Assembly: GCA_030390025.1 (NCBI GenBank)
Contig: CM059432.1
Location: 79,114,001 to 79,178,000, forward strand
Length of the DNA stretch: 64,000 nucleotides
Direction of reading: 5' to 3'
Source: Squalus acanthias
Taxonomy: Eukaryota
This document shows, one piece after another, positions 1,380-64,000 of this stretch; position 1 is the stretch's first letter; every line of letters begins with the position of its first letter. The notes below the pieces were generated by a model. The model was given only the letters and a program-made list of their open reading frames with translations, ran no database searches and was not told the origin of the DNA. Made by a program: the position numbers and the translations under genes.

Positions 1380-4110
1380 AATAAGTATATTCCAATCGAA
1401 AAGATGAAACTACTAGTAGTTTTAGAATGCCATGGATAAAGAGGCTAGAAACCACTTGAAGAAGGCATATGAGGACTATAAGAATAATAATGAAACAGCT
1501 AAAGCAGATAATGAGAAAATAAGCAGAGGTTAGGAGTGGCTACGGAAAGATAAGAAAGAATATGAAGGGGAAAAAAATCAAAAAACATCAAAAGGAACAG
1601 TATGGTATTTTAGAAATATATCAACAAAAAGAGAATTGTTGAAAACAAAGTAGGACCTCTGAGAGCAAAGGATTGTCAGTTTGTAGAGAATGATAAAAAA
1701 AATAGCAGATGTAGTTAATAAGTACTTCGCATTGGTCTTTACTAAAGAGAAAGATACCAGAGAGGAAGTGAATCCTGAAGTGGTAGAGAATGAGATGAGT
1801 GATATTGTGATGGATCAGGAGAAAAATTTAGATAAAGAAGAAATAGTTAGAAGTAGCGAGCATGGATTTCAAAAAGAGTCGATTGTGCTTGACAAACTTC
1901 ATTGAGTTATTTGAGAGGGTAACAGACATGGTAGATGGGGGAAATGTAGTGGATGCAGCTTACATGGACTTTAGGAGAGCAACATGGGAAATTACTAGAG
2001 ATGATTAAAGGACATAGAAATAGTGGGAGGATAGCAAACATAAGAACATAAAACGTAGGAGCAGGAGTAGGTCATTTGGCCCCTCGAGCCTGCTCTGCCA
2101 TTCAATAAGATCATGGCTGATTGAAAATTGGTTAGAGGGGAGAAAACAAAAAATAGGAGTTAAGGGCAGTTTTTCAGAGTGGTTTGCACGGTTCAGTTCT
2201 GGCGCCACTTCTGTTCACTGTGTATATGCAGATGCAATTCAATGTCAGTGAGTGAGGTGATGCATTTTGTTAAAAAAAAATAACAGCAGTAATTATGCTC
2301 TAAATGGAAGTAGGCTTGGTGCTGTGGAAGAGCAAATGAACTTGAGGGTTGAGGTTCACATGACATTGTCCACTGCCTCTGTGTTGTCAGATTGCTTGCC
2401 GACATGCAGCCCTGGATGAGCTGCAATTTCCTCCAATTAAATATTGGGAGTATCAAAACCATTGTCTTCAAGCCCCGCCACAAACTCCATTCCATTACCA
2501 CCGATTCCATCCCCCTCCCTGGCCACTGTTTCAGGCTGAACCAGACTGTTCACAAGCTTGGCGTCCTATTTGACCCTGAGATGAGCTTCTGACCCCATAA
2601 TCCTCACTGTCACAAAGACTGCGTACTTCCACCTCCATAACATCGCCCACCTTTGCCCCTGTCTCTGTTCATCTGCTGCTGAAACCCTCATCCATGCTTT
2701 TGTTACCTCCTGACCCAACTATTCGAATGCTCTTCTGGCCGGCCTCCCATCTTCCAACCTCCATAAACTTCAACTCATCCAAAACTCTGCTGCCCGCATT
2801 CTAAACCACAGTAAATCCCACTCATCCATCACCCCTGTGCTCACCGACCTATGTTGGCTGTCAGTCCACCAATACCTCAATTTTAAAATTCTCATCCTTG
2901 TGTTCAAATCCCTCAATAGCCCACCCCTCCCTATCGCTGTAACTTCCTCCAGCCCTACAACCCTCCAAGAACTCTGCTTTCCTCCAACTCTGGACTCTTG
3001 CGCATTCCCCACTTTCTGCGCCCTACCATTGGTGGCTGTGCATTCAGCCATATAGGCTTTAAGCTCTAGAATTCCCTCCCTAAACCTCTCTGTCTCTGCA
3101 ACTCTCTCTCTTCCTTGAAGATCCTCCTTTAAACTTACCTCTGACCAAGCTTTTAGTCAGCTGTCAGATCTCCTTCTTTGGCTCGGTGTCCATTCTTGTC
3201 TTATTACGCTCCTGTGACGCGCCTTGGAACATTTTCCTACGTTAAAGGCACTATATAATTGCAACTTCTTGTTGTTTGTTGTTGTATTAAAGGTAGCACA
3301 AAAAGTGAAATACTGCAGATGCTGGACATCTGAAATAAAAACAGAAAATTTTGGAATCAGCCTGCAGGTCAGGCAGCACCTCTCCACAAATGCTGCCTCA
3401 CCTGCTGAGTGATTCCAGCATTTTTTGTTTTTACTAAAGACAATACTTCAGGTTGATAAGGCTGTAAAAATAGCTAATAGAATTCTAAATTTTATCTCCA
3501 AAGGTATAGAATATAAAAACCGAGGGAATGAGAAGCCTATATAAAACCTTAATAAGACCTCAGTTAGTGTACTGTGTGCAGTATTGGGCTCCACACTATA
3601 GGAAAGATGTTGAGGCTTCAGAGAGGGTACAACACAGATTTGCTAGGATGCTGCCTGGTATGCGGAAATACAAGAAAAGGCTTGAAAAGTTGGGTCTTTT
3701 TTATTAGAACAACACAGATTACAGGGTTTTATAATAGAAGTTTGAAAAATTATGAAAGGATGGACAGGGTCAATAGGAACAGACTGTTTCCAGTAGTTGA
3801 GGAGTCAAGAACAAGGGGACACAGATACAAGATTAAATGTAAGAAATTTAGAACAGAGGGCACAAGAAATTTCTTCACCCAGAGAGTTGTGAGACTGTGG
3901 ATTTCACTTCCAGAGTTGGTGGTTGAGCCAGAAACTATGTCAACATTCAAGATTAGATTGGATAGGTGGATGAAGGAAAAGGGGTTAGTGGAATATGGGA
4001 ACAGGGTGAGTACATGTGATTAGAACAAATTGCTCATGTGATGGGTAAATGAGGACACAGACTGGTTGAGCCAAATGACCTTTTTTCGTGTTGTAACTTC
4101 CATGTATTTC
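1380..4110 (+). mobile_element. Old degenerate CR1 LINE ORF2/3' end, interrupted by an L2 and short repeats
   Basis: Fragments such as IADVVNKYFALVFTKE, SEHGFQK and RTRGHRYKI..RNFFTQRVVRLW resemble the intact CR1 copies in this window. Confidence 0.75.
2365..3265 (+). mobile_element. L2-type LINE 3' fragment
   Basis: WMSCNFLQLNIG, LGVLFDPEMSF, LTDLCWLSVHQYLNFKILILVFKSL; tail AAAGGCACTATATAATTGCAA. Confidence 0.8.
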
Positions 4111-25819: not shown

Positions 25820-26854
25820 ATTATGTTCTTATAACTAAGGGGAAACTGGAGGAAAACATTTTTATTTTGATGCTTTGCCATTTACGGGCTCTGCACATAT
25901 AGCTCTGTATGTTCTATTTCTTCAGCTAAGTAATGTACTGGGGTAAGGTTATCCAAAATGTTATCATTATTATTTTGAGCGTTGTTCATTTACTTCCTAT
26001 GCACAGGCCCGTTGTCTTAGTCATTCCCTCCCTTATTATCATCCCTCTGACTGAACCACTCATGTCATTATTTACCGCACTTCACATTCAGCTATCCCGG
26101 CAACGCAGTATTTCCTCTTGGCTAGTGGGTTGTATATTTTGTGACATCTCAAGTTCAGAAAATTGAAAATGATGGAAATATACAGTAGGTCCGCCAGCAT
26201 CTGAAAACAGAAAAGAGGGGTTAATATTTTGACTGGAATACCTGAAATGTTAATCTGCCTTTTCTCTTTTCAGATGCTGTAGTTGTATATTTCCAAAATT
26301 TTCTGCTTTTGTTTGATTCCCAATGTTTTTTTTTCTATAACTGCCGCTCATCATTGCATTACAGTAACTTGTTTTTATATAATGTCCTTCACGTAGATTA
26401 ACATCTGACTACTTAAAGTGGATTAATGAAGCTAGCAATACAGTGATGTGATGTCCTTCTTCCCAGAGAGTTTTATAAGAACATAAGAACATAAGAAATA
26501 GGAGCAGGAGTAGGCCAATCGGCCCATCGAGCCTGCTCCGCCATTCAATAAGATCATGGCTGATCTGATCCTAACCGCCAATCTACTATCTATCACAGAA
26601 ACATCTCCTGCATCTAACAGAATTGCACACACGAAATAGGAGCAGAATCAGGCTACACAGTCCCTGGGCCCGCTCCACTACCCACAGGGCCATGACCGAT
26701 CCGAACCTAGACTCATGTCCAAATTCCTGCCCGCTCCCCGTAACCCTTAATGCCCTTTATGGACTGATTCTCCTGGTATCTTCTAACCTTTTCCTTTACA
26801 TAAGCTTGGAACCATTATAGTGCAGCATCCCAATTTGTGTGCTCATTAAAGAAA

Positions 26855-34734: not shown

Positions 34735-35590
34735 AGAGAGAGAGAGAGGAGATCGGGGATCTGGGGGGCGAAGAGAGAGAGAGGGGATCGGGGGGGCGAA
34801 GAGAGAGAGAGAGGGGATCGGGGGGGGGAAGAGAGAGAGAGGGGATCGGGGGGGGAAGAGAGAGAGGGGATCGGGGGGGGAAGAGAGAGAGGGGATCGGG
34901 GGGGGAAGAGAGAGAGGGGATCGGGGGGGAAGAGAGAGAGGGGATCGGGGGGGGGAAGAGAGAGAGGGGANNNNNNNNNNNNNNNNNNNNNNNNNNNNNN
35001 NNNNNNNNNNNNNNNNNNNNNNNNNNNNNNNNNNNNNNNNNNNNNNNNNNNNNNNNNNNNNNNNNNNNNNNNNNNNNNNNNNNNNNNNNNNNNNNNNNNN
35101 NNNNNNNNNNNNNNNNNNNNNNNNNNNNNNNNNNNNNNNNNNNNNNNNNNNNNNNNNNNNNNNNNNNNNNNNNNNNNNNNNNNNNNNNNNNNNNNNNNNN
35201 NNNNNNNNNNNNNNNNNNNNNNNNNNNNNNNNNNNNNNNNNNNNNNNNNNNNNNNNNNNNNNNNNNNNNNNNNNNNNNNNNNNNNNNNNNNNNNNNNNNN
35301 NNNNNNNNNNNNNNNNNNNNNNNNNNNNNNNNNNNNNNNNNNNNNNNNNNNNNNNNNNNNNNNNNNNNNNNNNNNNNNNNNNNNNNNNNNNNNNNNNNNN
35401 NNNNNNNNNNNNNNNNNNNNNNNNNNNNNNNNNNNNNNNNNNNNNNNNNNNNNNNNNNNNNNNNNNNNNNGGGGAGAGAGAAAGAGGAGATTGGAGGGAG
35501 AGAGAGCAAGAGGAGATTGGAGAGAGAGAAAGAGGAGATTGGAGGGGGAGAGAGGGGAGATCGGAGGCGGGTGGGAGAAAGAGGGGAGAT
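34735..35590. repeat. Purine-rich minisatellite (GGGGATCGGGGGGG-AAGAGAGAGA)n spanning a 500-N assembly gap (34971-35470)
   Basis: Direct inspection; unit about 25-27 bp. Confidence 0.9.
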
Positions 35591-35631: not shown

Positions 35632-36385
35632 GGCCCGTATTTCTGATCGCAGCCCTCCCGCGGGCGGAGGCCTGCGATCTGGAAAAATCTGTGACCTTAC
35701 CTGAGGGCTCCCGGGACGCGCACAGTTCCGATGCTGGGCCTCACCAAACTCCAAGTGTGCAGGGCCCACGTATCCCAGGGGCGCATGTAGCTCGCAGCAT
35801 CCCTGGGATCAGGTGGGCCATGGGGAGCCAATCACAGAAAGGAATCTCCCTTCATATATTTGACAGGAAGACCTGTCAAATATATGAATGGAGATCAATG
35901 AAAAAACATAGTAAAACTTTAAATAAATTTTTTTTAAATGACCTTTTTAAAATGACTTGAAATTACAATAAATTAAGTATTTTAAACAAAAATTTAATTT
36001 TTTGAAAAAAATAAAGTATTTCACGGGGCTAAAAATAAACTTACCTTTTTTTAAAGTATTTTTAAATGATAAATCAGTGAAAAAAAATGTTTTAAATACT
36101 TTTTTTCTACTCTTATCCTGGTAAAAGCAGGCCTTACGCCTGCTTTTACCAGGCGTAAGAATTGTAAGGGTTTTCTGCGGGCGGAGGGTCTCCAAAAAGC
36201 GGAGCTATCCGCCCGCAGAGGCCCTTCTCCAGGGCAGCCGCAGGATCTGTCAAGACCATTCTTGACAGATCGGAAATGCCGGTTTTCAGCGCATGTGCTG
36301 TGCATGCCTGAAACCAGCATTTCCGATGTCCGTACGGGTGGGTGCACAGCGTCTACTCACCCGTAGGGATTAGAATATCCGGCCC
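35632..36385. mobile_element. PIF/Harbinger-type MITE, TSD ATT, inserted in a Penelope-derived repeat
   Basis: TIRs GGCCCGTATTTCT and AGAATATCCGGCCC; ATT at 35629-31 and 36386-88. Confidence 0.8.
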
Positions 36386-38039
36386 ATTAACTCTGTTTTT
36401 CTCTCCACAGATGCTGCCTGACCTGCTGAGTATTTCCAGCACTTTTTGTTTTTATTTTAGATTTCCAGCATCCGCAGTATTATGCTTTTGTATTAGGGGA
36501 ACATTGTCCACCAACACCTTGATTTTAAAATTCTCATCCTCATGTTAAAATCCCTCCATGGCCTCATCCCTTCCAGTCTGAACTCGGCAGTGTGAGTGCT
36601 CCTAACCGCATTATTGAGCTCTGGAGCTGGCTGTCACAATGAATGGATCATATTACACATTGCAAAGTACTTGATTCTTCAGGCAGGCAGAATCTAATTG
36701 CACATTCCAGACTGGTGCGTCTTGTCCTCCAAGGGGACCAATCAGAAATCTGGTCTTGCCCTCCGAGGGAACCAATCAGATCTTTGGTGTTACAAATAGT
36801 TACGGCCTTAAATTTGTAATGGAGAACACCACGAGGCAAGCCAGATTCATTATAATATTTAAATGGTCAGACCGCCTCCCGGCAGCGGGTTGGCTGCACC
36901 CCCCCCCCCCACATCCCACCTTCCACCTCCATTAAAACCGGAAGTAGGTGGGTTGGGGTCGGGATTTAGTTTTTAAATTCTTTAACCTCCCACCCGGCTC
37001 CAACCCACCTGTTTTTTGGGCTTAAAATTACCCATAGCTTCAGTCTTGTGTCTCTTCTCTGCACTGACTCCAGGGTTCCTGCCTTTCTGTGAAGGGAGTA
37101 CTGAAGGTAAATTCCCATGGGGTGTACAGGAAAACAAAAGGAGAAATTTACATTATTTTTCTTTGTTTTTATTTATAATCCTTCACAAAATTTTCTTCCA
37201 TGTATCTCCTGTGTTTATATTACGTCTGAGTTCACCAATGCTGTTCTTGCTTTGCTTTAATTTTTTGTGAAGTAATGAAGGTTTTCTGATTGAACACACA
37301 GTTGGACCAAAACTCTAATCTGAATTACAAATCAAGTGATGTACTGGCAGTCATGTATAAGATCATGACTGAAGCAGCAAACCAACAGTTGCTCATACTT
37401 AAACCATATCTCTGTTTATGCCAGTTGCATCTCAACATCCTGCATCAATCCAAAAGGTCAGTGCAGAATACCAGCAAGCATGTGTCGCCCATCATTTCTC
37501 TTGCTCGTGGAACTACCTCCAATCTGTCAATGATTGAAACTGTTCCTTTGCAGAAGCAGTTTATAAATAATTTAAATGTGGAGCGAGCTATCACTTGCCT
37601 TCTCACTATATTTACTCAATTTTTTCCAAAAATTATCTGGTTGGCTCTTGAACCTACTTATATTATTGGTTTCTATAGCATTCCCTGGCAACTTACTCTA
37701 TTTATTATCCTTTGTGTTAACGAGTTCTGCTGGGGTTTCCTATCTACTCCCAACTCTTAAATGATGTACTCTAGTTTTGAAACTTTCATCAGTATGAGCA
37801 ATTTGTTCTGATGAGCTTTCAATTCCAACACAATTTTAAATCTTTTATTAAGGCATCTTGAAGTCCTTTCTCAACGAGAATAAGCCTAACTTCCTTCACT
37901 GTTCTTGTAATGTGGATTCTTAAGGCCTGTTGGAATCTTTGTTGCTCTAAATGTACCTTCTTGAAGGCAATAACATTCTTCTTATGGTACGGCGACCGTT
38001 ACTGCTGTATTTCAGTATTTCAGATGGGGTCTAATCATG

Positions 38040-41465: not shown

Positions 41466-44400
41466 GATGTCGTCTCAGGGAGGAAGAGAAAACTGGTGCA
41501 AAATTTATCGTGAAGTGCTCTTGAATGCCACTTAATGATGAGCTCAAGCAGTACTGGGAGCCTGGAGGTAGACTGCTCTCTCGTCTTAGGTGCATAGGCT
41601 GGTGAGACAAGTAAAGTGAGTAAAATCCAGGGTAGCTTTATTAGAATGTAATGTCATTCCTCAAGAAAACTGAATTAATTCTTTACTTTCTGAAAAATGA
41701 AAGTGTCTGCCTATAGTACACAAGGACCTAAATATCTCCGCATTGAGTCTTGGGGATTTGCAAGCACGTTAAATCCAGAAAGCCAAGGCTTTGCATATTT
41801 CAGCTCTTATCATTGACCTATCTCTTTTCGGAAATTCAGAGACTATTAATGTATTTAGGAGTTTTAAAATGTCTTGTGCTTGGCAGAATCAACCTCTTTA
41901 ATGCAGGATACCAAATGAATGAAGCTCCTTTCTCCTTTATGGTGAGGATTACATTGTTGACTATTGTATTGCAAAATTAGTTTTCTACAGCATTGCACAG
42001 CCTCCCTATGCTCCCAGTGCTGCATACCTGTTCTAGAATAGCTCACATGATGTTTCTCCAATTCTGCACTAGGGTTTTGAATCAATGCTTTCTCGGTGTT
42101 AAGCTCTCTGACGTCTTTTCAGATTGCAATAATAAAAACGAAAGGCCCATCTCCGGCAGTAATGTGGAATGCAGGATCTGGCAGGCTGATCAGATTCAGT
42201 AAAACCTACTTTGATTAGAATTTTAAAAACTTTGCCGATAGTGACCAACAAACTTTTCATAACTGGGTACAATGTATATTGGTACCCACATAAGTGCTGT
42301 TATAGCATTATGTCCTCATTGCAGCGAATGGCTTGATTCTTGGAGCACAGAGATGTATACGATGATCAGTGCTTTAGATCCAGAAAATGAATGCAGAGCT
42401 GTCTTATTTCATCTTGTGGAGAAGTTTTTTTATGGAGCTATACACCAAGTCTATATCCTCTCACCCAGGAAAGCTAGAGATTAGGCCATTCTATTGAATA
42501 ATAGCTCTTAGGTTATCCAGTATCTCTCAAACAGAGCATCGCAATTTGCCTCAATCTACTTTTTGCACTTGTTATCCTGTTTAGTAATATATTGCTGTTG
42601 CTTCATTGCTCTGTGATACAGTGTAGTACAAACTCCAATATGTCTGATTTCTCCAAATACAGCAATGCGAGTTCCTGGCACAACCTGTTAAGTCCAGGCT
42701 TTGTGCCTTCTCTGCAAAGAGAGGAAAATGAAGGGACACTTTTTTTTTCTGGTTTGCCCTTGCACTTGTCCTAGTGGTTAGTTACAGAATGGCTGGCTGG
42801 AACTGCAATCAGGAACTGAATGGTGTGTGGCCAGGCCCAAGGAGACCTTAAAAAGGGAAGGAGAGGAAGTGAAACAACTTCTTGCATTTTTGCATCGGTT
42901 TCCAATTTAAAATGCCCAAATGGTGGTTTTTGTTCTTCTTCATAATTTGAAGGAGAAGCTCAAAAATAAAGTGCAGGTAGTGGAAAACAATGTACAAGAT
43001 CAAAACTTGAGATCCAAAGATGAGACTAAAACAAAAATTTAAATTATTTCTTAGACTCAAGCAACTATATGCATTTCGATGTGTTAGCTTGGTTTCTGGG
43101 GAAAATCTACAGATAACAAGAAATGTTCAGGGGAATTTCTTAAGAACTAAACATCTAAAATTGTAATAGTTCTTGCTATTCTCACGTTGTTATTTTCTAG
43201 TTTTGAAATGTAAGGCACATTATTTGTTGCATAACTGGAACTGGTTTGGGAGCTGCTTACCCTACAAACACTGAAAATTTAGAATGGGTCGAAAAAAATG
43301 GAGACAGAGGCCAAGTGGCAGTCTCTGAGATGATTGCAGAGTTACGGTTACCAGATTTGACAGCATAAATGCCAGGAGCCAGCTCACAGATGTTGGGCTC
43401 CCAGAATCCAAATTACAAGAATTGTATAAAAGCAACTTTTGTTTAACATTTGGAGTTTTATTGTGATTGTTATGTGATTTGTCATTTTTTTCCATGAAGC
43501 TGCTATTCTTTAGATGATGGTGATTGACAGCAGAAGCATTAATGGGCAAAATAAAACTAAAACATTTTAAAAACCAGATATATTAATCAGAAATATGTTA
43601 CTGACTTTAAATGAATAGTGCCATGGAATCTTTTACGTCCACCTTATTACATTTTTAAGACTTTAAAAATTATAAATGGGGAAAGACTACTTCCTCTGCT
43701 TGGATAGTCCACGATGTCATCAATTTAAAATTGTAGCAAAGCGAGTGAGGAGGGAAGTTAGGAGGAATTCCTCAACTCGAGGGTTTTGGAGCATGGAATG
43801 CTCTGCCACAAGCAATGGTTGAGGCAGAGAACATTGCATCTGTTGAGGGAAAATTGGATAATTATTTGAGGCAGAGGAAGATACAGGGTTATGGGGAGAG
43901 AGCAAAGTTGTACAATTAGTTTTGGATTGCTTAAGCAAAAAGCTGGCGCTGTCAAATGTCCTCCTTCTGTGCTATAAATCTCTGGTTCAACCTGAAGAGA
44001 CTAATGGGGCATCGATTCAAGGTCTCATCCCACTTGGGGAGTCAAACCCAAAGTGTAGTCTTTAGTTAAAATGGGGTTAGAGACTGGGGGTATTTGGACA
44101 GGGCACGCAGACAATTCAGTCCACATTTTAAAGGCGTACCTTCTATCCTTTTTTTATAATATTCTGTTATAAATTCCTTTTCCACATTTATAATGGAAAG
44201 TACCTATGCAAACTTTTCATGCTGTAATTATACCCTCCTACCAGTGGTGGCACTGCAACAACTCCATTGTCATTCTAGCCTGACAAGTTTACATAGGCAC
44301 TTTTCACTATAAATGTGGATAAATGAATTTATAATGGAAGAGGTTAATGGGCAGTGCATGCATATGTAAGATTTTTAATATATTATAGTTGGAGGTATTT

Positions 44401-45379: not shown

Positions 45380-45415
45380 AGTTCTGACGAAGGGTTTCGA
45401 CCTGAAACGTTAACT
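45380..45415 (+). ncRNA. Minimal type I hammerhead ribozyme motif
   Basis: AGTT-CTGACGA-A-GGGT(TTCG)ACCT-GAAA-CG-TT-AACT: stem I AGTT/AACT, stem II with a UUCG loop, palindromic stem III ACGT. Confidence 0.75.
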
Positions 45416-47969
45416 CTGTTTCTCTCTCCACGGATGTTGCCTGGCCTGCTGAGTTTTTCCAGCGTTTTCTGTTGTTGATACAAAAGTATTTCATTGGCTG
45501 TGAAGCACTTTGGAATGTCCTGATATGGTGAAATGCAAATCGTTCCTTTTCTTACTTTCCTTTCTCCTTCCTTCTTCCTTCATTGTACTTTGCGTACTGT
45601 GTCCAATTCCAATCACCAAGAGAGCCATTCAACTGCTGGAAGCAGTGCAGAGGAGAGCAACAAGACTGATCCTCAGTGTTGGCGTCTGACTTATGAGGCA
45701 AGAGTGGAGAGACTTGAGCTTTTTCAGCCTGAAAAGGAGGCATCTGAAAATTAATTTTGTAGTGGTAAATAAGATAGCAAATGGTTTGGTAAAAGTTCAT
45801 CTGGAATACTTTAAATTAAACTGGAAGTAGGACAAGGGGACATGGGTTCAAAGTATTAGAAGGTAACTTTAGGACTGGTATCCGGACGTAGTTCTTCATG
45901 CAAAGGTCAATCAATACTTTGGGAGTGATGGAGGTGAAAACCGTAGAATCATGTGGCAGTTTAGGGTTGTTCTGGATGGATGAATTAAGATGGACCAAAT
46001 GGCCTTCCTCATCCATACGTATCTTGTAGTCAGCCTCCCTCTGTCCACTTTCAGATTCCTTATATCATAGTCCATATCAATGCTACCTATCACGACTCTG
46101 GATCACAAGCATTTTTAAAATAGTTTTAAAAAGAGTGGACTTAATTGATACCTTATTAGCTTGATCCAACAGTTACTGTTTCTTCTGGATGATGGAAAAA
46201 TCACTGAATAAAATAGTTACTAGATGGAAACTTCTTGTCTTCTGAACCACAGCATCTTCTGTATGAGGAAGCTTCAGAGAATCATTTTGCAAAAAAAGTC
46301 TGGCCTTTTTTTGTTGAAACAGACATTTCCCTTTAATAATTATTGGGTCTTCAAAGTTTTTAGATTTTAGAAACCTGTGAAGAGTTGCTCAAAACATTGA
46401 TATTTAGATAACATCATCTTATGAGTTACAGATATGTAGCACCGTACTGAGCAAGGGAAGAATCTGGTGGCACAAATTGCTGACCATGAACATAAGATGT
46501 AGTCTGCTCTACTAAGATCAACTATTTTTCAGTTATCAAATATTTTATATTGTTGAACAAATGCAATCTCTTTATACAATAGCAAAATACTGCGGATGCT
46601 GGAAATCTGAAATAAAAACAGAAAATGCTGGAAATACTCAGCAGGCCAGGTCTGGGACCCTTCATCAGAACTTATAATCTCTTTATAGTTGCCCAACTCT
46701 CTATATCTTGGATATTTGCTTAGAGATGCAGGATCTATCTGTAGCTGTGCATAAGTTTAATCAGTACATAATTGTGTTTCTCCATCAGTTGAACATTTCA
46801 CACGGTCTGACTTGAGTAACTGGAACAAGCAAAGGTAGTAAACATCTCATAAATATTTAATGAGAAAACTACTAATATAATAATTCCTAAATGCCTATGC
46901 CTTCATTGGGATTTGTATCCTACATGTTCAATTGCACTTGAAATGTAAAAAGTTAAATGTGTCACAGGCTTTACTGCAATCTTATTTTTCCATTTTGCTA
47001 AGTATTTTTAATAATTGTTACTTTTGTTTTTAGGTGTATGGGTGTAGTGCTTTGGTTGTCAAATTTTTGAATTATGAATTTTCTTTTTGTATCTTCAGGA
47101 GACTCAAATGTTGCTACTTTTTTAAAAGGGCAAGTTACCATTCTATAATAGATTTCTGATGAAAAATAGATTTATATATAGAATAGTGGAAAGAGAGGAC
47201 TGATTAAAATGCTGGAATTTAATTGAGATAATGCCATAAGCCATGTTGGCTCAGCTGAATCCCAAGACAAGTATAGCCTTGCAATCACTTTTTATTTATT
47301 ATTATTTTAAAATGTTTTGGTTAGCTATATAAAAATGGCTTTCCTTGTTGATTATTTAAAATAAAAGATTGACGTAAGTAGATTGATCTGGACTCTTCAG
47401 TTCATTTAGCTGCTCTGACATTGTAGCTACTCATTTTCTTACTTGCATCTGTCATATTTTCATTAGTAGGGAGTTTGTAATGTTTCAGAACATGGATTTC
47501 TTCATCGCTTATGCCAAATCTGCTCTTGTGATTGGGCATTATGAGTAGTGATTTGAGAGGAGCAGATGGATATTGTTAGTTTTTGTTACCTGGTTTTGGG
47601 CTATTCAATTAATTCACTGGAGCTGAAAAAAGGACTTGATTCAGCTAGTTAATATGAGGAATTCAGTGCCCTGGAAATGAATGGTATGAAATTTGTAAAT
47701 ACTTTTTTTTTTCAAGTAAAAAATAGTGTCTCATATTTTCCTGCAAACCAGTCATGTAGCACCATTGAATTTGGTAACCATGAGGGAGGATTGATCTGGC
47801 TCATTCATCCTTGCCGAAAGGTGTGGGAAATGGAAGGTTGTAAAAGGAGAAAAAATGTATTGGTAGATTTAATCTTTTGATGTACTTTCTAGTATTTCTA
47901 AATGGTGATTTTTCTCTGATTAAATGTGCAGTTTACAGTTTTCTGGTATTTTAATGTTTTTGTCGATAA

Positions 47970-53100: not shown

Positions 53101-55049
53101 AAAATGGAAGTACCTTTTCCCAGCTGGAGCACAAAGTGATAAGATCATGTTAATAGAACTAGCAATAGATTTAGATTTGAGTTTGACTTTCTTTTTTATT
53201 CTAGTGAGGCCCGAGACTGTACTTTACTAAAGTGAGCATTTATATTCCAACAATGATATTCAATTAATATTTTTAAATAGTTAAGAATGTAACTACTGGA
53301 AAACTTACCTGTGTGGGGAATGCAAAATAGGAGGTTTTGTTAATTTTTTATCCATGGCAAGCCCAGCATTTATTGCCCATCCCTAATTGCTTTTTATTTA
53401 GATGTGACAACACCAACACCAGAATTTGTATGTATTTATGTTCCGCTGATCCAGTGAGGGAAGGACGGAAAACCAAGATGAAAAGTGAAATGAGCGAATG
53501 ACATACAAAATAATTAGAGCAGAAAAAAAGGAGAAAGTAAAACAATGACTAAGAAAATATTCTTTTATATATGTATATACAAGAAGCAGGCCACAGAAGA
53601 GATCCACAGAACCAGCCCTCTGTGTGGACTGGTGGTGGTCTCATTCATTTGTTTCCTTCCCTTTTTCCTTCTGTGACTTCTGTTGGTCTCTTCAGTGTAC
53701 TTCTGCACCACTCCCGTAGTACTGCTTCCGAGTTAACTGACAGGAGGGTTATTTCAGTAAGGTGAACTTGTTCCTGCAATGGGCATTGCCTATCAATCTA
53801 TGTGGAACCACCAAAATTCTGCTAGAATTTGGTAATGAATATCTGACCCTCAGGCATACTCTTGCCTGCTAGATGCAAGTTTAGCATTCTGTTATTAAAA
53901 ATACTATGCCAGCATAACCAGTTAGTATGTTGTATGTGTTTTAGGATTCTGATTAAGATGTAGCTACTTTTTTTCCTATTTCTTTGGGAAAGCTTACTTA
54001 ATTTGTTGGATTTTGAGACATTTCAGTTCCTTATAATTCTTGTCCTTTACACTTAGGATCAGTCTTGTTTCTCTTCTCTGTATCCTTTTCAATGTATTTA
54101 TATCTTTTTATGGTATGGGGTCAAGAACCGAACACAGTACTCCAAGTATCATTTAACCAGTCCATTATGAAGTCTGAACAAAATTTTTGTAGACTTGAAA
54201 ATACTAGATATCCTAGCATCTGATTATGTGTTTTTTCACGATGTCTAGACATGAAAAGGAACTTGGTATACTTAGTAACCTCCTCACTTTCAAAGTCCCC
54301 CTGTGCTGATTGAGTTCTCATAGAAACATAGAAAAATAGGAGCAGGAGTAGGCCATTCGGCCCTTCGAGCCTGCTCCGCCATTCAGTATGATCATGGCTG
54401 ATCCTCTATCTCAATACCATATTCCCGCTCTCTCCCCATACCTCTTGATGCCTTTTGTGTCTAGAAATCTATCTATCTCCTTCTTAAATATATTCCGTGA
54501 CTTGACCTCTACAGCCTTCTGTAGTAGAGAATTCCACAAGTTCACCACCCTCCTGAGTGAAGAAATTTCTCCTCATCTCAGTCCTAAATGTTCTACCCCG
54601 TATCCTGAGACTGTGCCGCCTCGTTCTAGACCCCCCAGCCAGGGGAAACATCCTCCCTGCATCCAGTCTGTCTAGCCCTGTCAGAATTTTATACGTTTCA
54701 ATGAGATCCCCTCTCATTCTTCTAAACTCTAGTGAATACAGGCCTAGTCGACCCAATCTCTCCTCATACGACAGTCCTGCCATCCCAGGAATCGGTCTGG
54801 TGAACCTTCGCTGCACTCCCTCTATGGCAAGTATATCCTTTCTTAGGTAAGGAGACCAAAACTGCACATAGTACTCCAGGTGTGGTCTCACCAAGGCCCT
54901 GTATAACTGTAGCAAGACATCCTTGCTCCTGTACTCAAATCCTCTTGCAATGAAGGGCAACATACCATTTGTCTTCCTAACTGCTTGCTGCACCTGCATA
55001 TTTGCTTTCAGTGACTGGTGTACAAGGACACCCAGGTCCCTTTGTACAT

Positions 55050-55250
55050 TGTGCGGAGATGCCGGTGTTGGACTGGGGTGGACAAAAATGAGAAGTCGCA
55101 CAACACCAGGTTATAGTCCAACAGTTTTATTTGAAATCACGAGCTTTCGGAGCGCTGCTCCTTCGTTACCTGACGAAGGAGCAGCGCTCCGAAAGCTCGT
55201 GATTTCAAATAAAACTGTTGGACTATAACCTGGTGTTGTGCGACTTCTCA
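55050..55250. mobile_element. 201-bp non-autonomous Penelope-derived hairpin insertion, 11-bp TSD
   Basis: TSD CCTTTGTACAT at 55039-49 and 55251-61; perfect 78-bp arms 55089-55166 and 55173-55250; sequence matches the 3' end of the element at 60557-63117. Confidence 0.9.
55165..55204 (+). ncRNA. Minimal hammerhead ribozyme motif
   Basis: GTTAC-CTGACGA-A-GGAGC(AGC)GCTCC-GAAA-GC-TC-GTGAT; palindromic stem III AGCT. Confidence 0.7.
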
Positions 55251-56324
55251 CCTTTGTACATCAGCATTTCCCAATCTATCACTATTTAAATAATACTCTA
55301 CCTTTCTGTTTTTCCTACCGAAGTGGATAACTTCACATTTATCCACGTTATACTGCATCTGCCATGTATTTGCCCACTCGCTCAACTTGTCTAAATCACC
55401 TTGAAGCCTCTTTGCATCCTCCTCACAACTCACAATCCCACCTAGTTTCGTGTCGTCAGCAAACTTGGAAATATTACATTTGGTTCCTTCATCCAAATCA
55501 TTGATGTATATTGTGAATAGCTGGGGCCCAAGCACTGATCCCAGCGGTACCCCACTAGTCACCGCCTGCCACCCCGAAAAAGACCCATTTATTCCTACAC
55601 TCTGTTTCCTGTCTGTTAACCAATTTTCAATCCATGCCAGTATATTGCCCCCAATCCCATGTGCTTTAATTTTGCACACTAACCTCTTAAGTGGGACTTT
55701 ATCAAAGGCCTTCTAAAAATCCAAATACACCACATCTACTGGTTCTCCCTTATCTATTCTACCAGTTACATCCTCAAAAAACTCCAGTAGGTTTGTCAAA
55801 CACGATTTCCCTTTCATAAATCCATGTTGACTTTGTCTAATCCCGTTGATATTTTCTAAGTGTCCTGTTATCACATCCTTTATAATAGACTCTAGCATTT
55901 TCCCTACTACTGATGTTAGGCTAACCGGTCTGTAGTTCCCTGTTTTCTCTCTCCCTTTTTTAAATAGTGGGGTTACATTTGCCACCCTCCAATCTGCAGG
56001 AACTGTTCCATAATCTATAGAATTTTGGAAGATGACAAGCAATGCATCCACTATTTCCATGGCTACCTCTTTTAGTACTCTGGGATGCAGATTATCAGAC
56101 CCTGGGGATTTATCAGCTTTCAGTCCCATTAATTTCTCCAGCACTTTTTTTTTACTAATATAATTTCCTTTAATTCCTCCTTCTTACTAGACCCTTGGTT
56201 CCCTAGCATTTCTGGGAAGTTATTTGTGTCCTCTTCCATGAAGACAGAACCAAAGTATTTGTTTAATTGCTCTCCATTTCCTTGTTCCCCATTATAAGTT
56301 CTCCTATTTCTGACTGTAAGGGAC

Positions 56325-57240
56325 ATATAAACATGGAAGATAGGAGCAGGAGTAGGCCATTCAGCCCCTCGAGCCTGTTCCGCCATTTAATGAGATCATG
56401 ACTGATCATCCAAATTCAGTACCCTGTCCCTGCTTTCTCCCCATATCCCTTGATCCCTTTAGCCTTAAGAAATATATCTAACTCCTTCTTGAATATATTT
56501 AATGAATTGGCCTCAACTGCCTTCTGTGGTAGAGAATTCCACAGGTTCACCACTCTCTGGGTGAAGAAATTCCTCCTCATCTCAGTCCTAAATGGCTTAC
56601 CCCTTATCCTTAGACTGTGACCTCTGGTTCTGGATTCCCCCGCTATCAGGAACATCCTTCCTGCATCTAGTCTGTCTAGTCCTGTTAGAATTTTATAAGT
56701 TTCAATGAGATCCCCTCTCATTCTTCTAAACTCTAGTGAATATAAGCCTAATCGACCCAATCTCTCTTTATACGACATTCCTGCCATCCCAGGTATCAGT
56801 CTGGTGAATCTTCGCTGCACTCCCTCCATGGCAAGAACATCCTTCCTCAGATAAGGCGACCAAAACTGCACACAATACTCAAGGTGTGGTCTCACCAAGG
56901 CCCTGTGCAACTGCAGCAAGACATCCTTGCTCCTGTACTCGAATCCTCTCGCTATGAAGGCCAACATACCATTTGCCTTCTTAACTGCCTACTGCACCTG
57001 CATGCTTACCTTTAACGACTGGTGCACAAGGACACCCAGATCTCGTTGCACGTCCCCTTTTCCCAATCTATTGCCGTTCAGATAATAATCTGTCTTCCTG
57101 TTTTTGCCACCAAAGTGGATAACCTCGCATTTATCCACATTATACTGCATCTGCCATGCATCAGCCCAATCACCCGACCTGTCCAAATCATACTGGAGTT
57201 TCTCTGCATCCTCCTCACAGCACACACGCCCACCCAGCTT
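56325..57240 (-). mobile_element. Younger CR1 3' fragment nested inside the long CR1
   Basis: Host sequence ..TAAGGGAC|CTACATTTG.. is split; the insert is near-identical to 8890-9790. Confidence 0.9.
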
Positions 57241-60200
57241 ACCTACATTTGTCTTCACTAATCTTTTTGTTTTTACATACTTGTAGAAGCTTTTACAATC
57301 CGCTTTTATGTTCCTTGCAAGTTTACTCTCGTACTCTATATTTCCCATCTTAATCAATCTCTTGGTCCTTTTTTGCTGAAGTCTAAACTGCTCCCAATCC
57401 TCAGGCTTGCTACTTTTTCTGGCAACTTTATATGACGACTCTTTGGATCTAATACTATCCTTAATTTCTTTTGTTAGCCATGGTTGGGCCGCTTTTTCTT
57501 TTGTGTTTTTGCGCCAGAAAGGAATGTATAACTGTTGCAATTCATGCATTTGTTTCTTAAATGTTAGCCATTGCCTATCCACCGTCATGCCTTTTAATGA
57601 AGCTCCCCAATCTATCATAGCCAACTCACTCCTCATACCATAGCAGTTTCCTTTGTTTAGATTTAGGACCCTAGTTTCGGATTGGACTTCTTCACTTTTC
57701 ATTTTAATGAAGAATTCTATCATGTTATGGTCACTCTTCCCTAAAGGACCCCGCACAACAAGATTATTAATTAACCCCTTCTCATTGCACAATACCCAAT
57801 CTAGGATAGCCTGTTCCCTAGTTGGCTCCTTGGCGTACTGGTCTAAAAAACCATTTCGTACGCACTCCAGGAATTCATCCTCCACAGTATTATTACTAAT
57901 TTGGTTTGGCCAGTCTATATGTAGATTAAAGTCACCCATGATTACTGTAGTACCCTTGTTACATGCATCTCTAATTTCCTGTTTGATGCCAGCCCCTACA
58001 TTACTACTACTGTTTGGAGGCCTATAGACAACTCCCACCAATGTTTTCTGCCCCTTGGTGCTTCTTAGCTCCACCCAGACTGATTCTACATCTTGATTTT
58101 CTGAGCCAATATCCTTTCTCACTATTGCTCTGATTTCATCCTTTATTAACCAGGCCACCCCACCACCTTTTCCTTTTCGCCTGTCCTTCCTAAATATCGA
58201 ATATCCTTGGATATTCAGTTCCCAGCCTTGGTCACCCGACAGTCATGTCTCCGTAATCGCAATTATATCACATCCGTTTACATCTATTTGTGCTGTTAAT
58301 TCGTCTTCCTTATTACGAATGCTTCATGCATTCAGATACAGTGCCTTTAGATTTGTCTTTTTAACATTTTTAGACATCTTAACATTTTTTTGTACTATGG
58401 CCCTATTTGTCTTATTAGCACTTTTTCTTACCCGGACCCTATTTGTTAGTGCACTCCTTTGTTTGTACGCTCTGTCCCTTCCTGACACAATCGGGTTATC
58501 CTTGCCCCAGTCACTTTCCTGCACTGCTTCCTTGTCTTTTCTCTTTAGCATTCTAGATTTCTCTCCACCGGGACCCTTCCCCCCCGCCCCCCCCCTTATT
58601 TAGTTTAAAGCCCTATCTACCTCCCTAGTTATTCGATTAGCTAGAACTCTGGTCCCAGCATGGTTCAGGTGTAGTCCGTCTCAACAGAACAGCTCTCTCT
58701 TTCCCCAGTACTGGTGCCAGTGCCCCACGAATTGAAACCCACTTCTCCTACACCAATCTTTGAGCCATGCATTCATCTCCCTGATCCTATTGACCCTATG
58801 CCAATTTGCTCGTGGTTCTGGTAATAATCCAGAAATTATGACCTTTGTGGTTCTGCTTTTTAATTTAGTCCCTAGCTGATCAAACTCTCTCAGCAGAACC
58901 TCTTTCTTTGTCCTACCTATGTTGTTGGTACCGACGTGGACCACGACAACTGGATCCTCCCACTCCAAGTTCTTCTCCAGCCCGGAGGCAATGTCCTTTA
59001 CCCTGGCAACATAGCCTTCGGGACTCACGCTCCTGGCTGCAGAGAACAGTGTCTATCCCCCTAACTATACTGTCACCTACTACAACCACCTTCCTTTTTA
59101 CGGCTTCCTGTACCACGGTGCTTTGGTCAGTTTGCTCGTAGTCCCCGCACTGGTCCACAAGGGTAATCATTGTATACTTATGAAGCATATCATTTCAACC
59201 TCCTTTGCAATACTTTACATTTCTAAATATTTTTTTAAAATGGCAAATTAAATTTTATTTGCTTAAATTATAATGGTTATTACACTAGTAGGAAGGTGTA
59301 ATGAAGTTGTACAAATCAGGACTACAGTAGATGATTAACACCTAAAATGGCTGACTCCCTAATAAATCGTCAGCTACTCCAAAAGATAGTTTTTGATTTT
59401 TATATTGATTGCTAGTTTTAGATATGGCAGTAAAGATCAGGTCCTGGAGTGATGGGAAAGAGATGTATAGATCACCTAAGAATTTGTGAGTAATCATGCA
59501 TGCAAGTAATCAATGATTTTACTTGCTAATCAGTGATTTCCCTGCAAAATCAACCTTGATGCCTAACGCTAACTGATTTCATGTCTTCTCTAGTCTGCAA
59601 GTCCTCAGTGATTTTTCACTTGGACCACCAGACACCTAATTTTTGTACTGCCATACCTAAAACTAGCAATCATTACAAAAGTCAAAAATCATTATATTTT
59701 GGAGTACCTCACTATTTAAAAGCTATAGTCAGACAAAGTAAAATGTTAGTACTAATTTCTTGTGACAAGCATTTGCCTCTTTCTCTGAGCTAATTGCATG
59801 GTTTCTGCATAGCCAAAATAAATCGGGTACTAAATAACACTCCCAAGTGCCACTGTATTTAGAAATTTAGTAACGACCTTTGTTGCTAACATTCTGAAAA
59901 CATACTACCTGTGAAGAATACTGTAGAAACTTCATAATGCACTTATTCATTACACTTGAAACTGTAGTATTGGTTTTAGCCCAAAACTAACAGAAGAATT
60001 AATATTTTTATGAATAATATAATTTTAAATGCTCCCAAGACATGACTGAATTAAAAAGTTAGAAACATTCAAGGTTAATTGTCTTATCGTTGTTTAGTTG
60101 TATGAAATACAGAATTGTTTTGAGTAGCTCAGTAGTCTGGATGGTATTGGACTTGATTGTGGATATTAGTTCTTTGGGTATCTTGCTGCTTGATCTTGGC

Positions 60201-60762
60201 TCTTGGGAATGAGTTCTACCATTTCTCAGTTGATTTGTTAGATGGAGAGCCTCTTTTTGTGGTGGGGAAAAAAAAATACTCCAGTGCAAACACTATCTTT
60301 ATATATACCATTTGCCAATCTGTTGTCCAGACTATACTGGTCTCTAGCTTTTGAGGAAAAGAATAAAAGTTGTTTTGAAGTTGTTCAAAGTCCAGAAAAA
60401 TTACTTATTGGTTAGTTGTTGTATATATGCTAAAATCATATTAATATTTTAACATAGATAATAAGGCATTCATTCATTCAAGGCCCCGAGTCCTGTGATT
60501 CTTTAGATGTAATCAATAGATGTTTTATTTCTGGGTACACAATCTGATAGAAAATAAAAATGAGAAGTCGCACAACACCAGGTTATAGTCCAACAGATTT
60601 ATTTAAAATTACAAGCTTTCGGAGCTGTCGCTCCTTCTTCAGGTAGGGTAGCTGTGAGAGAATCTCCCAGAATTCACAATATAAACACAGAAAAAATCTC
60701 CCTACATCAACATTCCTAATGAGACAATCAATGATCCGGAACAGCAGACAGAGGGAACCGCA

Positions 60763-62763
60763 GTGCTACAACCGAGGAAGAAAGAGTCAAATTGGACCCC
60801 TCCGGAGGGTCGCAGCCCTAAGCTTGACATGTATGCTCAAGCTGTCAGGAAATGCATCAACGCCAGATTCATCAGCCGTACTCACAAGACAGTCCAGAAT
60901 GTCACCCGAGCACAACGCAACGCCATCCACGCTCTCAAGACCAACCGCAACATCGTCATCAAACCAGCGGACAAAGGAGGACCCATCGTCATACAGAACA
61001 GAATGGACTATTGCAAAGAAGCATACCGACAACTGGACAACCAGGAACACTACAGACAGCTACCCGCAGATCCGACCAAAGAACACACCCGCCAACTCAA
61101 TAGACTGATCAAGACCTTCGATCCAGACCTTCAAAACATCCTACGCGCTCTCATCCCACGTACTCCCCGCGTAGGAGACTTTTACTGCCTCCCAAAGATA
61201 CACAAAGCCAACACACCCGGACGTCCTATCGTATCAGGCAACGGAACCCTGTGTGAGAACCTCTCTGGGTACGTCGAGGGCATCCTGAAACCCATCGTAC
61301 AGGGAACCCCCAGCTTCTGTCGTGACACCACAGACTTCTTGCAGAAACTCAGCACCCATGGACCAGTTGAACCAGGAACACTCCTCGTCACGATGGACGT
61401 ATCGGCACTCTACACCAATATCCCCCACAATGACGGCATCGCTGCGACAGCCTCAGTACTCAACACCAACAACAGCCAATCTCCGGACACCATCCTACAA
61501 CTCATCCGCTTCATCCTTGACCACAATGTCTTCACCTTCGACAACCATTTTTTTACCCAAACACACGGAACAGCCATGGGGACCAAATTCGCACCCCAAT
61601 ACGCCAACATCTTCATGCACAAGTTCGAGCAAGACTTCTTCGCTGCACAGGACCTCCAGCCAACGCTGTACACCAGATACATCGACGACATCTTCTTCCT
61701 TTGGACCCACGGCGAAGGATCACTGAAAGGACTACACGATAGCATCAACAGGTTCCATCCCACCATCAAACTCACCATGGACTACTCCTCAGAATCGGTT
61801 TCATTCTTGGACACACGAATCTCCATCAAAGACGGACGCCTCGGCACTTCACTCTACCGCAAGCCCACGGACAACCTCACGATGCTCCACTTCTCCAGCT
61901 TCCACCCTAACCACGTTAAAGAAGCCATCCCCTATGGACAAGCCCTGCGAATACACAGGATCTGCTCAGACGAGGAGGAACGCGATGGACACCTACGGAC
62001 ACTGAAAGACGCCCTCGTAAGAACGGGATATGACGCTCGACTCGTCGATCGACAGTTCCGACGGGCCACAGCGAAAAACCGCATAGACCTCCTCAGAAGA
62101 CGAACACGGGACACAACCAACAGAGTACCCTACGTCGTCCAGTACTTCCCCGGAGCGGAAAAACTACGCCATGTTCTTCACAGCCTTCAACATGTCATCG
62201 ATGACGACGAACACCTTGATAAGGCCATCCCCACGCCTCCACTACTCGCCTTCAAGCAGCCGCCTAACCTCAAAAGTACCATCGTTCGCAGCAGATTACC
62301 CATCTTTCAGGAGAACAGCAACCACGACACCACACAACCCTGCCACGGCAACCTCTGCAAGACATGCCAGATCATGGACACAGATACCATCATCACACGT
62401 GAGGACACTACCCACCAGGTACATGGTACATACTCATGTGACTCGGCCAACGTTGTCTACCTGATACGTTGCAGTAAAGGATGCCCCAGAGCATGGTACA
62501 TCGGCGAGACCATGCAGACACTGAGACAACGTATGAACGGACACCGCGCAACAATCGCCAGGCAGGAGGGTTGCCTCCCAGTCGGGGAACACTTCAGCAG
62601 TCAGGGGCATTCAGCCTCGGATCTGCGGGTAAGCGTTCTCCAAGGCGGCCTTTGGGATACACGACAGCGCAAAATCATAGAGCAGAAACTGATAGCCAAG
62701 TTCCGCACTCATGAGGATGGCCTCAATCGCGATATCGGGTTCATGTCACGATACAGAACGTGA
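60763..62763 (+). CDS. Penelope RT + GIY-YIG endonuclease (open frame, N-terminus truncated)
   Basis: IKPADKGG, LPKIHK..GRPIVS, MDVSALYT, GTAMG, YTRYIDDIF, LYRKPT, linker PCHGNLCKTC, VVYLIRC..WYIGET..LRQRMNGH, GLN. No stops over 666 codons; the frame is open back to the junction near 60711. Confidence 0.92.
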   Translation: MLQPRKKESNWTPPEGRSPKLDMYAQAVRKCINARFISRTHKTVQNVTRAQRNAIHALKTNRNIVIKPADKGGPIVIQNRMDYCKEAYRQLDNQEHYRQLPADPTKEHTRQLNRLIKTFDPDLQNILRALIPRTPRVGDFYCLPKIHKANTPGRPIVSGNGTLCENLSGYVEGILKPIVQGTPSFCRDTTDFLQKLSTHGPVEPGTLLVTMDVSALYTNIPHNDGIAATASVLNTNNSQSPDTILQLIRFILDHNVFTFDNHFFTQTHGTAMGTKFAPQYANIFMHKFEQDFFAAQDLQPTLYTRYIDDIFFLWTHGEGSLKGLHDSINRFHPTIKLTMDYSSESVSFLDTRISIKDGRLGTSLYRKPTDNLTMLHFSSFHPNHVKEAIPYGQALRIHRICSDEEERDGHLRTLKDALVRTGYDARLVDRQFRRATAKNRIDLLRRRTRDTTNRVPYVVQYFPGAEKLRHVLHSLQHVIDDDEHLDKAIPTPPLLAFKQPPNLKSTIVRSRLPIFQENSNHDTTQPCHGNLCKTCQIMDTDTIITREDTTHQVHGTYSCDSANVVYLIRCSKGCPRAWYIGETMQTLRQRMNGHRATIARQEGCLPVGEHFSSQGHSASDLRVSVLQGGLWDTRQRKIIEQKLIAKFRTHEDGLNRDIGFMSRYRT

Positions 62764-62992
62764 CTTGACATCATGGCCGGTCTTTCCAGGTTTTAAAAAA
62801 AAAACTAACACAAGAACCAAACACAAATGGAGAGGATATGCAGCCAGCAGGTGTTTTGACACGTTGGACCCCCTGGGACACATCTCATTGTCTTGGCTGT
62901 GCTCTTAGTGTGTCTTTGATGTAGGGAAAGATTTGAATACATTTTTTCTGTGTTTATATTGTGAATTCTGGGAGATTCTCTCACAGCTACCC

Positions 62993-63029
62993 TACCTGAA
63001 GAAGGAGCGACAGCTCCGAAAGCTTGTAA
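62993..63029 (+). ncRNA. Minimal hammerhead ribozyme motif in the Penelope pLTR (antisense copy at ~60609-60645)
   Basis: TAC-CTGAAGA-A-GGAGC(GACA)GCTCC-GAAA-GC-TT-GTA. Confidence 0.75.
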
Positions 63030-64000
63030 TTTTAAATAAATCTGTTGGACTATAACCTGGTGTTGTGCGACTTCTCATTTTTGTCCACCCCAGTCCAACG
63101 CCGGCATCTCCACATCATGATAGAAAATAGATTAGTGTATACAGAATATAAATGTAATTGATCATTCCCCAGTATTTTTTTAAAATTCTTGCAGTGCCTC
63201 TCTTGACCTTTGGGGATAAATTAAGCTTTACTGGTGCATGTAATATTAAAGCTGTTATCGTTACATACATCTATTGCATGTTCTGCTATAGATCCAGTCA
63301 GCTCATGTTTGCAATTGATTCAGTCAGCTGAGTGATTGGGAATTTGGGGGGGGGAATTTGGCCTGGGAACATGTAGCTGATAAAGGTAGTGTAATGAATA
63401 GCATTTACTATATATTAGTTTTGCTTTGCCATATCATGTCCTTCACAGATATGAAATTAAAATATCAATTATAATCTATTTTTGTTTTGTGTTCCTCAAG
63501 AGGTTTAGCAATATTAGTGGTATCGAATGGAACACAGACTTTAAATCATTCAAAGGCTGAAATGCCAACTGCAAAGTAAAGCACCCTGTATTCAACTTTA
63601 TTCAACATCTCTACTATGCCGGATTGAATTCTTCCTTTTCTATCCCTGTGACCTTTACTGACATTGCCAGTTTAATGCTCACAGGCAGTTTTTTGAGCTG
63701 TGGTGTGCAGATTGAGATTACCCAACTTAATTTTGAACACTCCAAAACTAACGAGAACAGTAAATACTCCTTCCATTTCCTTTTCTGGCTGTTAATTTTA
63801 ATATTTTGCATAAAAACTTAAATTGGGGACTGATTATTGCTGCCAGATGGAACAAATAACATTTAAAGTGGTTATTGAAATCGCTCTACAAATTTCAAAT
63901 AGCTTATTGTATACTTATTTTTATTTAAATTAACCAAGTTTTAAGTTCTTCTCTTCTGAATTTAAAAAGTAGAAAATCTCATGCCTGCATATATTTTTTT

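Follow-up and report, generated by a model that had tools for sequence, protein, structure and literature searches.

The 201-bp insert at 55050-55250 of the 64-kb window (the whole stretch of DNA analysed here) is a perfect hairpin lying between two copies of a short target site duplication (TSD), and most likely represents a minimal case of the known insertion pattern of Penelope-like elements (PLEs). Instead of founding a new mobile family, it is likely to be an insertion that is dead and heavily truncated. The features of this insert, referred to below as the mini, of its host site and of a related long element in the window are:

55039..55049, no strand: left TSD, 11 bp, CCTTTGTACAT
55050..55088, minus strand: Penelope 'tail' of 39 nt, found on this side only, which aligns with 63078-63117 of the long element
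55089..55166, minus strand: tail-bearing copy of the element 3' terminus, which ends within the hammerhead core and lacks C3-U4-G5
55167..55172, plus strand: loop of 6 nt, TACCTG, with element-sense letters on the plus strand, containing the start of the hammerhead core
55173..55250, plus strand: tail-less copy of the 3' terminus, 84 nt including the loop, ending at the tail boundary
55251..55261, no strand: right TSD, 11 bp, CCTTTGTACAT
55166..55202, plus strand: minimal type I hammerhead motif, assigned by motif and folds, with a predicted cut after 55198
54319..56327, minus strand: CR1-type LINE fragment, host of the mini, delimited by self-BLAST and split by the insertion
60556..63117, plus strand: 5'-truncated Penelope-like element of about 2.6 kb, with a 692-aa open RT-EN frame at 60685-62763

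The arms of the mini pair at 78 of 78 positions (55089-55166 with 55173-55250), and in the loop one T.G mismatch and one A-T pair flank a CC centre; the mini is one base change short of an 80-bp palindrome with a 2-nt spacer. As compared with 200 shuffles, the fold has a z score of about -25 on both strands. The TSD is exactly 11 bp long, being identical at 11 of 11 positions and not extendable. The anatomy given in the earlier note (11-bp TSD, 39-nt tail, 78-bp arms and 6-nt loop, inside a CR1) was thus confirmed from the sequence. The mini has neither the ORF nor the upstream portion of the terminal repeat. The frame of the host CR1 includes an RVT_1 match on the minus strand (55251-55712, E 8.6e-20). 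As the three other CR1 copies in the window that cover the insertion site all run on uninterrupted, without an insert, the 11-bp repeat is a genuine TSD. Together with the empty sites and the presence of a tail on one side only, the TSD makes an assembly artefact unlikely. The insertion is young, as judged by the identity of the arms (divergence <3.8%) and the unmutated TSDs.

All 201 bp of the mini align to the 3' terminus of the long element, at 91-92% identity. The long element has a perfect inverted arm of 142 bp (60556-60697 and 62941-63082), a one-sided tail of 35 nt and a 12-bp TSD (60545-60556 and 63118-63129), and carries the full hammerhead in both arms. The outer architecture of inverted arm, one-sided tail and TSD is therefore common to both insertions, and their tail-less arm ends fall within 5 nt of the same place. 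The RT domain was detected in the frame of the long element (RVT_1, E 1.4e-08). The Pfam GIY-YIG model gave no direct match to its window protein, and its C-terminus shares 41% identity with the GIY-YIG region of a relative, P0020 (E 6e-33); the RT and GIY-YIG combination of EN+ Penelope elements is thus found in the neighbour that is 91-92% identical to the mini. The best protein relatives come from sharks, Heptranchias perlo (91%) and Scyliorhinus torazame (84%), and about 190 N-terminal residues are missing as compared with an 881-aa relative. The mini had been described as consisting only of the 3' terminus of the Penelope family at 60.5-63.1 kb. The whole insert does align there, but the mini is a member of a sister subfamily and not a copy of that element. 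Its subfamily is very abundant in organism A, with 14,427 contigs (4,232 of them at least 99% alike) on a 231-nt stretch, 54960-55190, that includes CR1 flank; in organism C, 4,260 contigs (423 at least 99% alike) were aligned to the same stretch.

Several further observations concern the long element. At 60698-60710, the inverted copy apparently resumes about 10 nt past the 142-bp arm, for about 13 nt, before the ORF; this was read by eye, was not recovered by pairwise alignments, and suggests a template slip near the junction. On the element sense strand, an ATG follows the tail end in both insertions (63117-63119 and 55047-55049), and the loose ends of contigs in X15, a run guessed to be RNA, suggest that the element continues with ATG past the tail, with an agreement of only 0.44-0.61. 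The tail may end where the ORF starts, with short target homology. A run resembling a 3' splice acceptor lies at 62977-62987, 9 nt upstream of the hammerhead core; in D. virilis Penelope, the 5' end of helix I marks the end of an intron (PMC4209133).

The hammerhead motif of the mini is made up of stem I TTAC/GTGA (with one G.U pair), the core CTGACGA, an extra A, stem II GGAGC/GCTCC and GAAA, and an AGCT palindrome stands in place of stem III. The cut is predicted after ..GAAAGCUC (55198/55199). CTGACGA and GAAA are complete on the plus arm only (55170-55198), the other copy beginning ACGAAGG; the full core is hence confined to the plus arm and the opposite arm is broken inside the core, as had been noticed before. 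The motif has the features that Cervera and De la Pena give for minimal PLE hammerheads (PMC4209133), namely CUGANGA and GAAA, an extra nucleotide after A9, the G10.1-C11.1 pair and a palindromic 15.2-16.2. As the Rfam hammerhead models gave no match at the mini, the ribozyme call rests on the motif. A match to Rfam mir-1597 (51.9 bits) is that of a generic hairpin below the gathering score of 93, and was rejected. By fold prediction, the motif alone forms stems I and II, and two copies pair via AGCU. Substitutions said to preserve stem II pairing were not found, stem II being unchanged with respect to the long element, and the differences between the two hammerheads lie in loop II, N7, N17 and stem I. 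Stem I seems to covary, with T-A in the long element (62992-63026), C-G in the parent type of the mini, as read from contig loose ends, and T.G in the mini (55166-55202).

Within the full hairpin, the predicted pairing probability of the hammerhead stems is 0. Freeing the core is predicted to cost at least 55 kcal/mol, a lower bound because the constrained fold left stem I unenforced, and the antisense arm of the mini is transcribed before the hammerhead arm. The opposite strand, with the tail in sense, lacks C3-U4-G5. With the plus-strand motif trapped in a duplex and the other strand lacking these nucleotides, the ribozyme of the mini is predicted to be inactive whichever strand is read. The co-transcriptional cleavage proposed earlier would hence be unlikely in the hairpin context, given the order of the arms, the stem probabilities and the predicted energy. 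Minimal PLE hammerheads are described as inactive as monomers and weakly active as dimers (PMC4209133, PMC6765202), and that of the Anolis PLE as dependent on the protein of the element (PMC11167929). The proposal that the mini would give 78 bp of dsRNA still holds on the predicted fold, provided that the locus is transcribed.

Whether the mini belongs to a family or is a one-off was assessed from fold-back junctions in public contigs, for which 4 of 22 public runs, none of them listed as RNA, were aligned to 54960-55190. Among the best 15 of 22 joints, 13 tie the left arm to the 5' edge of the hammerhead, at 55165-55168. Their left-arm partners take 12 different positions between 55083 and 55132, many of them at depth 14-30. 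Of the other two, one is an opposite-strand joint within the arm and one joins the CR1 to 55084. The latter comes from an organism A contig that joins CR1 position 55048 to the start of the tail-less arm at 55084 (depth 17.5; the short side has 24 letters), possibly an independent insertion at a homologous CR1 site. The clustering at the hammerhead edge exceeds that expected from uniform truncation (13 or more of 21 at an expected share of 12%, P 8e-8), a crude null that assumes opposite-strand joints to be reported equally well and uses contigs, which drop rare variants. The clustering could be inflated by under-reporting of opposite-strand joints, by the tool or in the contigs. Many other short fold-back junctions thus exist with a different geometry, and there is no single fixed fold-back point.

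Some junctions recur. That from 55124 to 55168 has a depth of 310 in 3 contigs, a 3-nt deletion at 55165 has a summed depth of 7,632 in 10 contigs, and a C insertion after 55167, one base off the junction of the mini, has a summed depth of 2,659 in 10 contigs, although contig depth is not equal to copy number. Both indel classes at the loop also occur in organism C, at depths 1,145 and 539. These classes could represent lineages of hairpins, joins that recurred at built-in microhomology, or effects at the ends of parent contigs; the C-insertion class may be an amplified lineage or merely a parent variant. A separate 80-nt contig of depth 12 crosses the loop (55118-55190) with 7 other letters and 2 gaps and represents a near-symmetric hairpin. 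In the raw-read run X21, only 17 reads were aligned, too few to be informative. The exact mini locus was spanned by none of the 24 pieces listed, beside which there were 21,077 further pieces. The depth over 55168-55190 (53,639, 39,739 and 18,969 in X2) was rejected as a hairpin copy count because parent contigs can run into this interval (5 of 9 letters match, by a loose-end reading). Short gaps of 1-9 letters between the sides of a joint were likewise not taken as evidence by themselves, as short contigs can show no others. The 24-nt family motif had 0 matches in metagenome, viral and prokaryotic genome contigs.

A second short PLE-like insertion family was observed at 45380-45478, 36387-36493, 46577-46675, 3301-3433 and 26165-26303. 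It has a minimal hammerhead motif of its own (at 45384, with an AACGTT palindrome) and includes two old fold-back hairpins, with arm similarities of 78% and 70%. One copy, at 46.6 kb, is flanked by a 12-bp TSD, carries an internal deletion and starts about 7 nt or less upstream of the core. Imperfect inverted-repeat elements unrelated to the Penelope terminus lie at 59363-59718, 44167-44334 and 35844-35895, and are possibly derivatives of DNA transposons. An assembly gap of 500 N occupies 34971-35470, in a purine-rich simple repeat.

On balance, the mini probably arose when both nicked target strands primed reverse transcription in a single abortive integration and the two short cDNAs were joined. 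The data show how the mini is built, that the site without an insert exists, that the mini is kin to an RT/GIY-YIG element of like layout and that its family has many other short fold-back junctions; the priming steps that follow are inferred. The protein of the element would have nicked both strands of the CR1 at positions 11 nt apart. Of the two target strands, one would have primed at the tail end, giving a 117-nt cDNA, and the other at an internal start site at the tail boundary, aided by partial pairing with the RNA, giving an 84-nt cDNA. Synthesis of both would have ended in the 5' portion of the uncut hammerhead, which is likely to be a zone where RT preferentially stops. The cDNAs would then have been joined head-to-head, most simply via TCA/TGA complementarity with one later C-to-T change; the junction would be explained equally by the loss of 1 nt from the C-insertion class or by a single untemplated base. 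Unless it is read through, in which case it may supply dsRNA, the product is likely to be inert.

Both copies in the mini extend 27-33 nt beyond the predicted cut site. As the loop letters are sense on the plus strand, the tail-less copy is the longer cDNA of the terminus. A snap-back copy of that strand would not supply the tail, which favours two primers, in an argument from loop polarity that involves 2-6 letters only. The first 10 nt of the right TSD and of the tail are identical at 7 of 10 positions and pairable at 9 of 10 if G.U is allowed, and the target strand is predicted to pair at 9 of 10 positions with the element RNA at the tail-less end, just past the arm. This match was noticed post hoc; among 126,980 window 10-mers, pairing at 9 of 10 is reached by 395, and identity at 7 of 10 by 917 in register and by 4,912 (3.9%) in any of 8 registers. 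At the tail-less end of the long element, the match between target and RNA is only 2 of 10. Together, the longer tail-less arm and the 9 of 10 pairing favour two separately primed, then joined cDNAs. A Poseidon protein is reported to cut and extend both target strands, with RT starting at two sites that bound the tail and an uncleaved RNA as template; in the same Anolis study, initiation proceeded without target homology (PMC11167929).

The main mechanistic rival to the two-primer route remains self-priming, in which one cDNA, having ended at the hammerhead 5' edge, folded back and primed itself, and resolution by the EN produced the asymmetry of the tail. Self-priming has been proposed from palindromes at inverted PLE junctions (PMC3846280), as has tail formation through EN resolution (PMC8557442). 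The near-symmetric junction and perfect arms come naturally to a snap-back, and a single fixed end whose partners are scattered fits it too. However, the strand that could fold, that with the antisense loop, is tail-less and has no tail to copy, the 3-bp TCA/TGA register requires a loop of 2 nt, and two RT start sites acting on both strands have been shown in vitro for a relative (PMC11167929). We therefore regard self-priming as possible but unlikely. A longer inverted insertion, like that at 60.5-63.1 kb, could also have lost its centre later, through a deletion that spanned the inverted repeat. Long palindromes are known in general to undergo deletions of the centre, and the nearby long element is alike in outer architecture, its arms being 142 bp long. 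Nevertheless, the unmutated arms (78 of 78) and TSDs (11 of 11) indicate a young insertion, and junctions at the same edge in many other copies and in the second family point to truncation at the time of insertion, which makes a later deletion highly improbable.

A separate question is whether a fold-back copy, once read through, was recopied by a tail-recognising Penelope protein, so that the mini would belong to a small non-autonomous family. The mini keeps the tail and both RT start sites, a separate contig crosses the loop, and the near-symmetric variants reach depths of 2,659 and 7,632, against 14-30 for many single joints, and occur in two organisms. It is also reported that pLTR sequences suffice for mobilisation in trans (PMC3846280) and that non-autonomous PLE derivatives exist (PMC8557442). 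Against this, the junction partners are spread over 12 positions, the high-depth variants are explicable by short parent contigs and recurrent joining at built-in microhomology, the insert has no promoter-type head and consists entirely of the PLE terminus, the RT must open a 78-bp duplex, and no second copy was found within the 64-kb window. Such a family is accordingly quite unlikely. The earlier note had offered two readings. The analysis supports the first, in which fold-back integration of Penelope left an extremely truncated product. The second, a MITE-like non-autonomous family, is weakened by the scattered junctions, though a few recurring types may represent small amplified lineages. 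Fold-back points scattered at random among copies had been taken in advance as the mark of simple truncation, and scatter was found at one end, over 12 positions, with clustering at the other. It is quite probable that the mini is a one-off truncation product, whether two-primed or self-primed.

As a single locus the mini matters little, being the smallest form of a published pattern. Hammerhead pairs about 100-700 bp apart on opposite strands were already reported in 2014 (PMC4209133). It is nevertheless a clean record of a still unproven Penelope integration pathway. Loop polarity, the one-sided tail and the match between target and RNA can be scored across thousands of young shark copies, which bears on two-primer priming versus snap-back, and the position of cDNA ends at the hammerhead 5' edge as opposed to the cut site bears on the role of PLE hammerheads. 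The part worth following is thus statistical, namely the position of cDNA ends with respect to the ribozyme and the question of whether priming involves two strands. A more speculative and rather doubtful idea is that the 5' edge of the uncut hammerhead is a preferred RT end, at which this shark lineage continues to produce hundreds of self-complementary minis of about 200 bp; some of these would be amplified again, as a hairpin family with a silenced ribozyme, and feed dsRNA to small-RNA silencing. If this were true, the role of the ribozyme fold would be that of an RT terminator or template boundary and not that of scissors. In Drosophila, siRNAs arise from inverted Penelope copies (PMC3681739), and abundant perfect hairpins could therefore matter for silencing. 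In a full-text search, outside which most subscription papers lie, no literature on shark PLE hairpin minis or on truncation clustering at the hammerhead 5' edge was found.

The mini was compared with known systems. It is not a MITE with DNA-transposon TIRs at both ends, as the 39-nt tail stands between the left TSD and the arm and the arms are a retroelement terminus; nor is it a SINE, as no Pol III head derived from tRNA, 5S or 7SL was found in Rfam and all 201 bp are PLE terminus. In L1 twin-priming inversions, both target strands prime cDNA, and head-to-head joining proceeds via microhomology. The proposed origin of the mini is similar, but L1 copies different parts of the RNA, whereas both copies in the mini cover the same 78 nt. 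Metazoan retrozymes (PMC7229834) are, like the mini, short, non-coding and hammerhead-bearing, with a proposed use of PLE machinery. However, they form head-to-tail tandems with canonical active hammerheads and circular RNAs, whereas the mini is a single inverted insertion with a minimal motif, and the assignment to this class was rejected on these grounds.

The closest likenesses are to PLEs. The minimal metazoan PLE hammerheads (PMC4209133) share with the mini the core, the extra nucleotide between 9 and 10.1, the G10.1-C11.1 pair and a palindrome for helix III, but in the mini one copy is broken in the core and the motif lies inside a perfect duplex. In PAc, the Poseidon element of Anolis carolinensis (PMC11167929), a tail with an RT start site at either boundary likewise lies just downstream of the hammerhead, cDNA synthesis proceeds through the uncut ribozyme, and both target strands are extended. 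The PAc ORF starts in stem II; no such start inside the hammerhead was found here, where none of the frames that span the terminus is similar to the N-termini of relatives, and PAc initiation proceeds without target homology, whereas the mini has a partial match at one end. The described PLE insertion pattern is an inverted 5'-truncated copy with a tail of 30-40 bp at either end (PMC8557442), and Pen2a_Av of Adineta vaga has an inverted pLTR, a 31-bp tail and a 9-bp TSD (PMC3846280). Correspondingly, the insertions in the window have an inverted 5'-truncated copy, with a tail of 39 nt in the mini and 35 nt in the long element, and the mini has an 11-bp TSD. Like these EN+ PLE insertions (Pen2a_Av, PMC3846280; scheme, PMC8557442), the mini is a head-to-head inverted 5'-truncated copy with a one-sided tail of 30-40 nt, a short TSD and a palindromic junction, and it differs from them in that only 84-117 nt, the terminus alone, were copied around a 6-nt centre.
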